The notes: generated by a model from the letters alone, not told the origin. Shown: positions 52,391 through 56,073, numbered from the stretch's first letter. The stretch is 64,000 nucleotides of DNA from a plasmid (GCF_058153355.1 NZ_JBLWLY010000002.1); one strand, 5' to 3'. Program-made: numbers and translations.

Positions 52391-52589
52391 TAACCAGGCC
52401 GTGCCGGCACGTTAACCGGGCTGCATCCGATGCAAGTGTGTCGCTGTCGCCGGCCTCCTCACCCGGTCACGTTTCGTCGTTCCTCCTCCACGCGCTGCGG
52501 CTTCGGGGCCGCACCTGCATTCGTATGCGGTCGCCCGGTTACAGGTGCGGCACGGCCTGATGGAGGCCGCATGTGAGAGGAGAATTCCC

Positions 52590-53516
52590 ATGCCAAACTG
52601 GTGCTCGAATCGTATGTATTTTTCTGGTGAACCAGCACAGATTGCTGCGATTAAACGACTGGCCAGCGGTGCAGTCACACCGCTTTATCGCCGCGCCACA
52701 AATGAAGGTATTCAGCTGTTTCTGGCCGGAAGTGCCGGACTTCTGCAGACCACTGAAGATGTGCAGTTTGAACCGTGCCCCGGACTGACGGCTGCCGGAC
52801 GTGGTGTTGTATCGCCGGAGAATATCGCGTTCACCCGCTGGCTGACACACCTGCAGAACGGTGTGCTACTGGATGAACAAAACTGCCTGATGCTGCATGA
52901 ACTCTGGCTGCAGAGTGGTACTGGCCAGCGTCGCTGGGAAGGATTACCGGATGAGGTCAGGGAAACCATCACCGTGCATTTCACCGCCAAAAGAGGTGAC
53001 TGGTGTGGCTTCTGGAGTAACGAGGATGTATCGGTGTGGTGGAACCGTCTGTGTGACAATGTACTGCCGGAAAAAAACATGCCGTTTGACCTGTTGACGG
53101 TTCTGCCCACCCGCCTGGATGTTGAAGTGAATGGCTTTAACGGTGGTGTTCTGAACGGTGTTCCTTCTGCGTATCACTGGTATACGGAACAGTATGGCGT
53201 GAAGTGGCCTGTGGGGTATGAGGTGAATATCAGCCGTCAGGGAGAAAACTTCATTCAGGTGGATTTCGACACGCCGTGGTGTCAGCCGGAAAGCAACGTT
53301 GTTGCAGAATTAAGCCGCCGTTTCGGCTGCACGCTGGAGCACTGGTACGCCGAACAGGGCTGCAATTTCTGTGGCTGGCAGCGATATGAGCGTGGAGAGC
53401 TTGTTGATGTGCTGTGGGGGGAACTGGAATGGTCTTCCCCGACAGATGATGATGAGCTGCCGGAAGTCACCGCGCCGGAGTGGATAGTCGACAAGGTGGC
53501 GCATTACGGGGGATGA
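52590..53516 (+). CDS. Conserved hypothetical protein (about 308 aa from the RBS-supported ATG), GC-rich plasmid backbone gene
   Basis: GAGGAG Shine-Dalgarno before the ATG at 52590; cysteine pairs near both ends; no family assignable by eye. Confidence 0.5.
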   Translation: MPNWCSNRMYFSGEPAQIAAIKRLASGAVTPLYRRATNEGIQLFLAGSAGLLQTTEDVQFEPCPGLTAAGRGVVSPENIAFTRWLTHLQNGVLLDEQNCLMLHELWLQSGTGQRRWEGLPDEVRETITVHFTAKRGDWCGFWSNEDVSVWWNRLCDNVLPEKNMPFDLLTVLPTRLDVEVNGFNGGVLNGVPSAYHWYTEQYGVKWPVGYEVNISRQGENFIQVDFDTPWCQPESNVVAELSRRFGCTLEHWYAEQGCNFCGWQRYERGELVDVLWGELEWSSPTDDDELPEVTAPEWIVDKVAHYGG

Positions 53517-53899
53517 AGTATGACGGAGACGGGCGGGCAACCGCCCGTTTCTTTTCCGACAAAGGATGTCGCCGTGCTCCTCTTTTTACTGCGCCGGCTG
53601 ACGCGGCGCGGCATAAACGCTGCCTGTGGTCAGTGTCCCGCGTCCGGCGGGCACGGGACGGGCGCTTTACCGCTCCGGGCTGGCGTCGGTGACAGTGTAC
53701 GCCAGCCCGTCGCCCTGTTCTGATGAACGCCCTTCAAGCCGCTTTCTCGGCATAACCTTGCCGTCAGAAAGACGACGGCTGCGGTATTCCACGGTCGGTC
53801 TGACCCGTTACCGGACGCGGTGAACAGCCCACAGGCAGCGGGGAACGGGCACCACAGGGGTGCCCTCCCGGTGCCCTCTGTAAGAGAAGGAGCGTTGTT

Positions 53900-54583
53900 A
53901 TGTCCCGTTTTGTCCTTGGTAACTGCATCGATGTTATGACGCGTATCCCTGATAACGCCATTGATTTCATATTAACTGACCCGCCATATCTCGTCGGTTT
54001 TCGTGACCGTTCCGGGCGCACCATCGCCGGAGATAAAACCGATGAATGGCTGCAACCGGCCTGTAATGAAATGTACCGCGTGCTGAAAAAAGATGCGCTG
54101 ATGGTGAGCTTCTATGGCTGGAACCGCGTCGATCGCTTTATGGCCGCCTGGAAAAATGCGGGATTCAGCGTGGTTGGCCACCTGGTATTTACCAAAACCT
54201 ACACATCGAAGGTCGCATATGTGGGCTATCGCCACGAATGCGCTTACATCCTGGCAAAAGGGCGTCCGGCGCTGCCTCAGAAGCCATTGCCCGACGTGCT
54301 GGGCTGGAAATATTCAGGCAACCGCCATCACCCGACGGAAAAGCCCGTTACCAGCCTGCAACCGCTCATTGAGAGCTTCACACACCCGAACGCGATTGTG
54401 CTGGACCCGTTTGCAGGCAGCGGCTCAACCTGCGTCGCCGCCCTCCAGTCCGGACGCCGGTATATCGGTATCGAGTTGCTTGAGCAGTATCACCGTGCCG
54501 GGCTGCAACGCCTTGCCGCCGTGCAGCGGGCCATGCAGCAGGGGGCCGCGAATGATAACTGGTTTGAACCGGAGGCGGCGTAA
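53900..54583 (+). CDS. Orphan DNA N6-adenine (or N4-cytosine) methyltransferase
   Basis: 227 aa; catalytic DPPY motif (..FILTDPPYLVGF..) and C-terminal AdoMet-binding ..LDPFAGSGSTCVAA..; no adjacent restriction endonuclease gene. Confidence 0.8.
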   Translation: MSRFVLGNCIDVMTRIPDNAIDFILTDPPYLVGFRDRSGRTIAGDKTDEWLQPACNEMYRVLKKDALMVSFYGWNRVDRFMAAWKNAGFSVVGHLVFTKTYTSKVAYVGYRHECAYILAKGRPALPQKPLPDVLGWKYSGNRHHPTEKPVTSLQPLIESFTHPNAIVLDPFAGSGSTCVAALQSGRRYIGIELLEQYHRAGLQRLAAVQRAMQQGAANDNWFEPEAA

Positions 54584-54805
54584 ATGAACTATGCCGGACA
54601 CGAAAAACTTCGCGCCGAAGTGGCGGAGGTGGCCAACACCATGTGTGACCTTCGGGCCAGGCTGAACGATATGGAGCATCGCTGTCGCTTTGATTCCGAT
54701 GTGCTTGTTGAACGCCTGACACGCCAGACGCTGTATCGCGCCAATCGCCTGTTCATGGAGGCATATACCGAAATTCTGGAACTGGATTCCTGCTTCAAAG
54801 ATTGA
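54584..54805 (+). CDS. Small hypothetical protein (73 aa)
   Basis: ORF with start overlapping the methyltransferase stop. Confidence 0.35.
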   Translation: MNYAGHEKLRAEVAEVANTMCDLRARLNDMEHRCRFDSDVLVERLTRQTLYRANRLFMEAYTEILELDSCFKD

Positions 54806-54816
54806 GGGGAGAGAGT

Positions 54817-55251
54817 ATGTACGGAACATGCGAAACGCTCTGCCGGGAGCTGGCAGCAAAGTATCCGGGAGACACGCCGTTGATGCTGGTTGTCTGGTCC
54901 CCGGAAGAGATTCAGGCCCTCGCTGACGGAATGGATATTTCCCTGTCCGATCATGAAATCAGGACCGTCCTGGCGCGCCTGGAGGACATCCCGGAAGACC
55001 AGCGAATTGAGTCCGGTATTTCTTCCTCCGCGGCGATGGAGATTATCAGCAACGTGAGCGAAAACCGCCAGGTGACCGTCCCTGCTGAACTGCTGGCGTC
55101 CCTGATTCAGACCGCTGAACAGGCATTGTGGAAGCGTGAATGGGCCGCCCGTGATTACGGCCTCGCCGTCCCGGAATGCGTTACCCGCCGTCAGGCGGTG
55201 GTTAATCAGGCCCGCATCCTGCTGAAAAACAACACGCACGAAAACGACTGA
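54817..55251 (+). CDS. Hypothetical protein (about 144 aa)
   Basis: GAGGGGA Shine-Dalgarno before the ATG at 54817; GC-rich. Confidence 0.4.
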   Translation: MYGTCETLCRELAAKYPGDTPLMLVVWSPEEIQALADGMDISLSDHEIRTVLARLEDIPEDQRIESGISSSAAMEIISNVSENRQVTVPAELLASLIQTAEQALWKREWAARDYGLAVPECVTRRQAVVNQARILLKNNTHEND

Positions 55252-55296
55252 TGTTATCGCCGCCTGCGGGCGGCGATACAGGGAGAACGATTAATC

Positions 55297-56073
55297 ATGA
55301 ACGAAAACACAACGCTGAATGCACTGATTTGTCGTCACGCCCGAGACCTGCTGCTGGCGCAGGGCTGGCCGGAAGAGACGGATGTTGACCAGCGGAACCC
55401 GAAGTATCCGGGCTGGATCAGCATTTATGTTCTGCTGGATGCGCCCCGGCTGGCGACGTTACTTATCAACCGTCACGGCGGCGCACTGCCGCCACTCCTG
55501 GCCTCCGCCATTCACAAACTGACCGGAACCGGGGCGGAACTTGTACTGTCCGGCAGTCAGTGGCAGTCGCTGCCGGTACTTCCGGCAGACGGAACGCAGG
55601 TGTCTTTCCCGTATGCCGGTGAGTGGCTGGCAGAGGATGAAATCAGGGCAGTTCTTGATGCGGTACGCGATGCAGTACGCTGTGTCAGTTACCAGGTGGC
55701 AGAAGATACGCGGCGTATCCGGGCGGCGCTGACCACAACCGGTCAGACGTTACTGACCCGCCAGACGCGCCGCTTTCGCCTGGTCGTGAAGGAAAGCGAT
55801 CACCCCTGCTGGCTCGATGAGGACGACGAAAACCTGCCCGTGGTGCTCGATGCCATCCTGAACCGGGGCGCACGTTTTTCGGCGGTGGAAATGTATCTGG
55901 TCAGCGATTGTATTGAGCATATCCTGTCCAGTGGGCTGGCCTGCGATGTGCTGCGTATACCGGATGAACCGCCCCGCCGGTGGTTTGACCGTGGTGTTCT
56001 GCGGGAGGTGGTCCGGGAAGCCCGGGCCGAAATTCGCAGCATGGCGGATGCCCTGGCAAAAATCCGGAAATGA
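55297..56073 (+). CDS. Hypothetical protein (258 aa)
   Basis: Uninterrupted GC-rich ORF, same strand as the preceding genes. Confidence 0.45.

Follow-up and report, generated by a model that had tools for sequence, protein, structure and literature searches.

A leading-region module with an M.EcoGIX-type methylase and promoter-like single-stranded DNA hairpins, very probably stranded on a pINV-type plasmid

The 64,000-nucleotide (nt) stretch of plasmid DNA analyzed here (GCF_058153355.1, NZ_JBLWLY010000002.1; hereafter the window, numbered from its first letter) contains a block of five plus-strand genes, one of which encodes an orphan DNA methyltransferase (methylase), together with two inverted-repeat regions that are predicted to fold as stem-loops on the minus strand. 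In order, the genes encode a 308-amino-acid (aa) DUF1281 protein (52590..53516), the 227-aa methylase (ycdA, 53900..54583), a 73-aa protein (yceA, 54584..54805), a 144-aa DUF1380 protein (54817..55251) and a 258-aa protein of the ycfA type (55297..56073; ycfA in pCP301). Alignment with homologues places the start of the DUF1380 gene at the ATG at 54817, not at the TTG at 54802. In the nomenclature of R100 and pCP301 the block reads yccB-ycdA-yceA-(DUF1380)-ycfA. The two structured elements are hairpin A (52390..52565, minus strand), 5' of the DUF1281 gene, and hairpin B (53517..53899, minus strand), which fills the gap between the DUF1281 and methylase genes. At 58.3% guanine plus cytosine (GC), the block (52390..56093) stands out from its left flank (37.4%), its right flank (48.9%) and the window as a whole (46.6%). 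Comparison with intact orthologues in the plasmids pRHB19-C10_2, F and pESBL-EA11 (hereafter pRHB19, F and pESBL) gave ratios of nonsynonymous to synonymous substitution rates (dN/dS) of 0.09-0.33 for all five open reading frames (ORFs), which indicates that they are genuine genes under purifying selection.

The methylase matches Pfam PF01555 (9e-40) and NCBIfam PRK13699 (1e-149). Its DPPY motif occupies residues 27-30 (nt 53978..53989) and its FAGSGS motif residues 171-176, an order (motif IV before motif I) that is that of the beta class. The protein is 93.4% identical in aa sequence both to the pESBL enzyme, M.EcoGIX, and to the F enzyme, with a dN/dS of 0.09-0.10. On this evidence from sequence, we assign it as an orthologue of M.EcoGIX, an orphan beta-class N6-adenine DNA methyltransferase. 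M.EcoGIX has been described as a single-strand-specific, early, anti-restriction methylase on which transfer to restricting recipients depends and which has numerous homologues among IncI1 and IncF plasmids (Fomenkov et al. 2020, PMC7736820). According to the same study, its SAY sites are unmodified on both plasmid and host in the native context, and essentially one strand is modified when the enzyme is expressed from constructs.

Searches of NCBIfam, PHROGs and PADLOC supplied no functional name for any of the four remaining proteins. The DUF1281 protein (yccB/yfdA/YubB family) matches Pfam PF06924 (1.5e-48) and PF18406 (4e-15) as well as PDB 2ijr, "hypothetical protein Api92" (2e-50), a structure solved but uncharacterised; it is 93.5-97.7% identical in aa sequence to its pESBL and pRHB19 counterparts (dN/dS 0.20-0.29). 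The 73-aa protein falls in PHROG 4830, of unknown function (2e-36; dN/dS 0.16-0.29); a Pfam search with the protein itself gave no match, and PF27407 appears on fused homologues in precomputed annotations. The DUF1380 protein matches PF07128 (3e-52) and has a paralogue, about 30% identical, encoded after klcA in conjugative relatives; its AlphaFold model, from a shallow alignment and with a predicted local distance difference test (pLDDT) score of 51, is unusable. The 258-aa protein matched nothing in Pfam, NCBIfam or PADLOC and only PHROG 8919, of unknown function. It has 178 representatives among 1.84 billion proteins, a dN/dS of 0.14-0.22 and a confident AlphaFold2 model (pLDDT 91.4), the best match of which in BFVD (E = 2e-3) is uncharacterised.

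An earlier note, made from the sequence without database searches, had described the locus as five co-oriented GC-rich ORFs that include a DPPY methyltransferase lacking a restriction partner. Both statements hold: the genes lie together on the plus strand with the composition and selection given above, and no nuclease or restriction family was matched in the ORFs neighbouring the methylase in four hidden Markov model (HMM) libraries (Pfam, NCBIfam, PHROGs and PADLOC). The note had also been unable to assign a function to the other four proteins, an outcome that the HMM and structure searches leave unchanged, and its suggestion that they might act against host defences is a guess from their location.

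The block is widespread. At least 5,000 records in the plasmid collection match 52300..56200 by megablast, at least 3,989 of them typed as conjugative, and the matching records carry the annotations DUF1281, DNA methylase and DUF1380. Identity at the DNA level over the block is 95.4% to pRHB19 (a conjugative IncF plasmid), 94.5% to F and 93.5% to pESBL (IncI1), and the order and co-orientation of the five genes are the same in all three. In these relatives the arrangement is parR-parM (minus strand), then DUF1281, methylase, 73 aa, DUF1380, 258 aa and klcA/ArdB, followed further along by a second DUF1380 gene, ssb, a parB-like gene, psiB, psiA, hok, SLT, oriT and traM. In all three plasmids the module accordingly forms the oriT-distal end of the leading region, and the F loci named yfdA and yffB have been placed oriT-distal to the promoter element ssp2 (bioRxiv 10.64898/2026.01.09.698686). 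The methylase, DUF1380 and DUF1281 proteins are families 8, 7 and 27, respectively, among the largest families enriched in leading regions (Samuel et al., PMC11541004).

Hairpin B lies directly 5' of the methylase gene. Folded as single-stranded DNA (ssDNA), this 383-nt gap reaches -117.7 kcal/mol (z = -8.0), and it is 97.1% identical to its counterpart in pESBL and 94.0% to that in F. Wen et al. (2025, PMC12672017) report six ssDNA promoters in pESBL, mapped by 5' rapid amplification of cDNA ends (5' RACE) and sorted into three classes: class 1 is Frpo/ssi, class 2 lies 5' of klcA and ardA, and class 3 lies 5' of M.EcoGIX; classes 2 and 3 are stated there to be conserved in F. We repeated the published scan, which folds 300-nt windows at 10-nt steps with DNA parameters and a threshold of -75 kcal/mol. 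On pESBL it returned exactly six peaks at the expected places: one at 4400-4799 of the pESBL locus (L004), immediately 5' of the methylase gene, which starts at 4783; two 5' of klcA and ardA; and three coinciding with the known ColIb ssi sequences. The sole peak past the threshold in the part of the window that holds the block was 53490-53919 (-97.0 kcal/mol). Hairpin B is thus, by position and sequence, assigned as the orthologue of the class 3 promoter (ssp3). One compensatory pair was found in it, in F; the plasmid copies are 90-99% identical among the matches listed.

Many records annotate a "hypothetical protein", a 103-aa ORF, over the same region (53513..53692 in the window; 7605..7916 in locus L001; 4395..4706 in the pESBL locus). 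Within this ORF the window has lost 1 nt and F has gained 1 nt, which breaks the frame in both although the DNA is still 94-97% identical; we therefore regard the region as a non-coding structured element and the ORF as a mis-annotation. At its 5' end, after the DUF1281 stop codon, a plus-strand terminator-like RNA hairpin (53525..53557; inverted repeat I17) has a 12-base-pair (bp) GC-rich stem running into a U-rich tract and an RNA fold of -26 kcal/mol (z = -5.6). It may function as a terminator, and its presence after the DUF1281 gene fits separate transcription units for the DUF1281 and methylase genes. A smaller plus-strand hairpin separates the DUF1380 and 258-aa genes (55252..55279; inverted repeat I16; RNA fold -21 kcal/mol, z = -4.0). 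It is a perfect 10-bp palindrome, TATCGCCGCC....GGCGGCGATA, without a T-run, and is kept at 95.6-100% identity in F, pRHB19 and pESBL; it may serve in RNA processing or stability.

Hairpin A resembles a short class 2-type ssDNA promoter. Its 27-nt inverted-repeat arms (52395-52421 and 52533-52559) are 81% complementary, and a perfect 10-mer pair, GCCGCACCTG / CAGGTGCGGC, lies at 52508-52517 and 52542-52551. As ssDNA, 52385..52600 folds at -55.1 kcal/mol (z = -3.95), a stability attained by 0/200 shuffled sequences. The conserved, covarying pairing is that of the long outer repeat, and the 10-mer is used in neither the minimum-energy nor the consensus fold. Homology to F and pESBL begins in blastn at 52390, the outer base of the stem, so that hairpin A forms the exact left boundary of the module common to IncF and IncI1 plasmids.

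The first lead to class 2 was a weak one, a 74% match over 73 nt to the region upstream of klcA, when both intergenic regions were compared with an IncF leading region by blastn. The minus strand of hairpin A can be aligned from end to end with the pESBL and F class 2 promoters. A class 2 profile built without hairpin A recovered it with nhmmer (52398..52556, minus strand, E = 1.2e-7, model positions 15-235) as the sole match in the window, and the same profile matched the equivalent site in F, pESBL, pRHB19 and pCP301. In a 14-sequence alignment of the class 2 family with 37 predicted pairs, 95.4% of the cells were paired and 13/37 pairs were changed on both sides; the covariation score of 0.311 compares with 0.105 in shuffled alignments and was reached by 0/500 of them, and slid controls were only 31-43% paired. 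The bases that are invariant on the distal arm in 14/14 members are CTTG and TA...T, which we read as core bases of the -35 and -10 boxes. The boxes of hairpin A (TTGCAT-N15-TAACGT) agree with the consensus at 6/12 positions and those of the mapped class 2 promoters (TTGCAT-N15-TAAGAT) at 7/12. The wobble cells in the stem, read on the minus strand, comprise 16 G·T and 0 A·C, which favours folding of the minus strand. These results support membership of hairpin A in the class 2 ssDNA promoter family, and its activity as a promoter may be surmised by analogy with the mapped members.

Hairpin A is also extremely conserved, being 98.5-100% identical to its counterparts in F, pESBL, pRHB19 and pCP301, that is, with 0-3 changes per 200 nt. 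The adjacent DUF1281 gene has a synonymous divergence (dS) of 0.05-0.18 and the methylase gene one of 0.34-0.39, and both non-coding hairpins are more conserved than the synonymous sites of the genes they adjoin. Of what the earlier note had said about 52400..52589, the inverted repeats are real and the promoter-like character of a single-strand hairpin there is borne out by the class 2 membership and the compensatory changes; the folding calculation it had proposed gave the significantly stable structure described above, conserved with covariation among homologues, while the 10-mer it had quoted plays no part in the supported fold. It had flagged this upstream hairpin alone, and had passed over hairpin B, the orthologue of which is the experimentally mapped promoter of the methylase (PMC12672017).

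Diverged relatives of hairpin A occur in other genera. In Erwinia persicina pEP1 (locus L007, 7196..9744) and Enterobacter cloacae pCZ862 (locus L006, 7275..10170), three compact class 2-type hairpins lie directly 5' of the methylase gene, klcA and a third small gene, and the DUF1281 gene is absent from both plasmids. A hairpin of this type is present upstream of the methylase gene in every case, 25 nt from the start codon and with no other promoter candidate. The three hairpin-gene pairs, in the absence of DUF1281, suggest cassettes that have been rearranged between plasmid lineages. If so, the compact hairpin would drive the methylase in Erwinia and Enterobacter, and the class 3 hairpin would have replaced the compact type in E. 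coli-type plasmids.

In the window the module is cut short. Leading-region homology stops, by blastn end points, at a right breakpoint (56093..56094) 20 nt after the last stop codon, at the equivalent of which the relatives go on into the class 2 promoter ssp2 and klcA. No klcA, ssb, psiB, psiA, oriT or tra DNA of F or pRHB19 was detected anywhere in the window, and blastn with five known class 1 Frpo/ssi sequences gave only chance matches of 15-24 nt there, with the controls found in F, pRHB19 and pESBL. The block is therefore a fragment of a leading region and not a working one in the window. Beyond the breakpoint lies an ORF for an IS110-family transposase (56376..57266, minus strand), followed by IS66-family genes. 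The IS110-family ORF lacks about 48 N-terminal profile positions, so the insertion sequence (IS) copy that cut the leading region short is probably itself damaged.

The surrounding DNA is, judged from its gene content, that of a pINV-type (Shigella/enteroinvasive Escherichia coli, EIEC) invasion plasmid with an IncFII backbone. Positions 1..12706 hold the mxi-spa type III secretion region and are 99.3% identical to their Shigella dysenteriae Sd197 counterpart, and the icsA/virG autotransporter gene (24743..28051, minus strand; 1102 aa, with the VirG insertion domain) adjoins the antisense small RNA RnaG (28070..28189, plus strand; Rfam RF02550, 158.5 bits).

Taken together, the block is very probably an oriT-distal leading-region module of IncF/IncI1 type, with an M.EcoGIX-type methylase and ssDNA promoters, stranded on a pINV-type plasmid. 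The earlier note was thus right in seeing a resemblance to a conjugative leading region, in that synteny with F, pESBL and pRHB19 and 93.5-95.4% identity place the genes in no unrelated context, and was incomplete in that the module is truncated and sits on a non-conjugative plasmid. The module is an ordinary one, already described for pESBL and F, and the module, its methylase and its class 3 promoter are all in the literature (PMC7736820, PMC12672017, PMC11541004). Modestly new are the class 2 membership of hairpin A, its extreme conservation and its folding energy just short of the published threshold, and the finding that a compact hairpin, not a class 3 one, precedes the methylase in other genera.

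In the relatives, synteny suggests that the transferred strand would be the minus strand in the orientation of the window. On entry as ssDNA, the two long imperfect inverted repeats would fold into stem-loops mimicking duplex promoters, from which host RNA polymerase could transcribe the module genes ahead of complementary-strand synthesis; such ssDNA transcription has been published for the orthologues of hairpin B (class 3, ssp3) in pESBL and F (PMC12672017). Hairpin A would serve the DUF1281 gene, the transcript ending at the terminator-like hairpin, and hairpin B the methylase, 73-aa, DUF1380 and 258-aa genes. The methylase, by analogy with M.EcoGIX, for which N6-methyladenine (m6A) at SAY sites on single strands is published (PMC7736820), would set m6A at these degenerate sites on the single strand and so blunt restriction once the duplex has formed. 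Conversion to duplex would abolish the hairpins and switch the module off. Severed by IS elements from klcA, ssb, psiB, oriT and tra, and with no sigma-70-type duplex promoter predicted across 52250..56400, the module in the present plasmid is probably a transcriptionally silent remnant, and activity would be expected only upon mobilization that transfers the minus strand.

For hairpin A we tentatively go a step further: it is quite possible, if short of probable, that it is a previously undescribed additional ssDNA promoter of IncF/IncI1 plasmids, a compact class 2 variant that drives DUF1281 and marks the outer boundary of the module. If so, the published scan missed it only because its folding energy of about -71 to -73 kcal/mol fell short of the cut-off, and this narrow miss might explain why the reported promoters number only six.

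Several observations weigh against parts of this interpretation. The best 300-nt fold at hairpin A (-72.6 kcal/mol; -70.5 in pESBL) does miss the cut-off of -75 kcal/mol, which is the detection threshold of the PMC12672017 scan and not a biological definition. Compared with the TAAGAT of the mapped class 2 promoters, its TAACGT makes a weaker -10-like hexamer, and the induced operons that PMC12672017 counts in pESBL number only six, so the promoter activity of hairpin A may be weak or absent. A simple consensus search of hairpin B gave no convincing pair of -35 and -10 boxes, a relaxed scan of its minus strand returning only TACACT, in an apical loop. Folding stability differs too little between strands to decide which of them folds, and the assignment of the transferred strand depends on synteny since oriT lies outside the window. 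The experiments behind the reading were carried out on the pESBL and F orthologues, not on the present plasmid. Finally, all five ORFs are intact, so that "remnant" here does not mean decayed.

The alternative that survives best, although we consider it unlikely, is that the hairpins are complementary-strand priming signals, replication roadblocks or cruciforms at a boundary, and that DUF1281 is transcribed from elsewhere. Frpo-type elements do prime DNA synthesis as well (PMC7736820; bioRxiv 10.64898/2026.01.09.698686), ssp2 of F, itself a class 2 element, acts as a replication roadblock (bioRxiv 10.64898/2026.01.09.698686), and hairpin A is a class 2 relative placed exactly at the module boundary, with a degree of conservation (0-3 changes in 200 nt) beyond what a weak promoter would need; the count of six induced operons, not seven, points the same way. 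However, the F loci beside yfdA and yffB turn duplex quickly and the delay begins only at ssp2 (bioRxiv 10.64898/2026.01.09.698686), which argues that hairpins A and B are no roadblock in F. Moreover, the bases of hairpin A that never vary within the family are precisely TTG and TA...T, spaced as in a promoter and located on the correct arm, and in Erwinia and Enterobacter a hairpin of the same type stands alone as promoter candidate before the methylase gene.

Action of the structures as RNA (5' untranslated region elements or terminators), or coding of the small "hypothetical protein" by the region of hairpin B, we regard as very improbable. The ORF annotated across that region in many records, the terminator-like RNA hairpin at its 5' end and the ability of the inverted repeats to fold nearly as well on either strand might be cited in its favour. 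Nonetheless, the ORF is frame-broken in the window and F despite the conservation of the DNA, the G·T wobbles of the minus strand would become A·C mismatches on an mRNA, no Rfam family was matched within the block, and no duplex promoter is predicted upstream that could produce such an untranslated region: 0 sigma-70 promoters were predicted in 52250..56400 as against 2.0 +/- 1.8 expected. Least credible of all is a vegetatively expressed duplex-DNA methylase with an epigenetic role or mimicking a host restriction-modification enzyme, like Dam or CcrM. Membership in the beta-class N6/N4 superfamily, shared with CcrM and M.RsrI, speaks for it; against it, likeness to CcrM-type enzymes is confined to the C-terminal cofactor-binding part, the 93%-identical M.EcoGIX leaves SAY sites unmodified in the native context and modifies essentially one strand from constructs (PMC7736820), and the methylase block likewise has no predicted duplex promoter.

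For annotation, the reading of the block as a stranded leading-region module means that it should carry the name of the M.EcoGIX/ycdA module and not that of a new anti-defence island, and that the "hypothetical protein" between DUF1281 and the methylase in thousands of records is a structured promoter element. For Shigella and EIEC, it means that pINV plasmids retain an intact but stranded establishment module of an IncFII ancestor. Hairpin A is a seventh, compact and extremely conserved hairpin, of the class 2 family, placed 5' of the DUF1281 gene.

Elsewhere in the window, the replication and maintenance backbone includes the antisense RNA CopA (42866..42956, minus strand), the IncFII RepA gene (43029..43898, plus strand), the pemI/pemK toxin-antitoxin pair (49289..49880, plus strand) and, to the left of the block, parR/stbB (50959..51318, minus strand), which is intact, and parM (stbA; 51350..52283, minus strand), which a frameshift has split into two overlapping ORFs (51350..52114 and 51981..52283). 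A 22-nt repeat, TGCnTCnTTTTGAGTTnnTGTT, occurs three times around the parM start (52245..52350) and resembles a parC centromere/promoter. Group II intron copies or fragments have Rfam matches starting at 19329, 23479, 31481, 36688, 38322, 60160 and 61833, accompanied by reverse-transcriptase/maturase ORFs (e.g., 60598..61830); in NZ_CP023354, a group II intron is inserted inside the same leading-region block. The block is only about 92.6-92.7% identical to that of S. flexneri pINV and about 95.4-95.5% identical to those of E. coli IncF plasmids. The window has no end-to-end match in the plasmid collection and the best matches are mosaic, so that the plasmid looks mosaic or belongs to a lineage not represented there.

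Among known systems, pESBL-EA11 (NC_018659, 53271..56974) shares the five genes and their order at 93.5% DNA identity over 3.7 kilobases, and matches the window at 93.4% in the methylase, 97.1% in hairpin B and 99.5% in hairpin A. There, the module is passed on by conjugation and runs on to klcA, ssb, psiB, ardA and oriT, whereas in the window it stops at the IS junction; the left neighbours also differ, being dinI-umuDC in pESBL and parMR in the window. F (NC_002483, 52655..56358; Couturier et al. 2023, PMC9849209; bioRxiv 10.64898/2026.01.09.698686) shares hairpins and gene order at 94.5% DNA identity. In F the DUF1281 gene is frameshifted, unlike in the window, and ssp2, klcA and Frpo1/2 are retained downstream, all of which the window lacks.

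The class 2 promoters of pESBL (klcA, ardA) and F (ssp2) have in common with hairpin A the skeleton GCCGTG...CGGGCG...AAGCCGCAG...CGGGTGA...CTTG...GCCCGG.TA...T...CACGGC, as well as the stems, the strand and the placement just 5' of a gene. Hairpin A differs from them in missing a central insertion of about 70 nt, in having TAACGT for TAAGAT, in being less stable (-72.6 versus -81 to -85 kcal/mol per 300 nt) and in lying outside the six mapped promoters of pESBL. With the class 1 Frpo/ssi elements (F ssiD and ColIb-P9 ssi1-3; Masai and Arai 1997), hairpins A and B would share the principle of a stem-loop on the transferred strand that RNA polymerase takes for a promoter; neither hairpin is similar to them in sequence. 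Three candidates from an insect-gut metagenome island, Frpo*1, Frpo*3 and Frpo'4 (PMC11541004, Supplementary Table 2), can be aligned with the whole of hairpin A and have the same covarying stems; that study makes no link between its Frpo*/Frpo' candidates and class 2 or the DUF1281 gene. The closest parallel to the truncation is the pINV plasmid pCP301 of Shigella flexneri (NC_004851, 163184..166693), which has the same truncated yccB-ycdA-yceA-ycfA module between the same flanks, with stbAB to its left and a transposase to its right. The two differ in that pCP301 has a split DUF1380 gene and an intact parM, whereas the window has an intact DUF1380 gene and a frameshifted parM.

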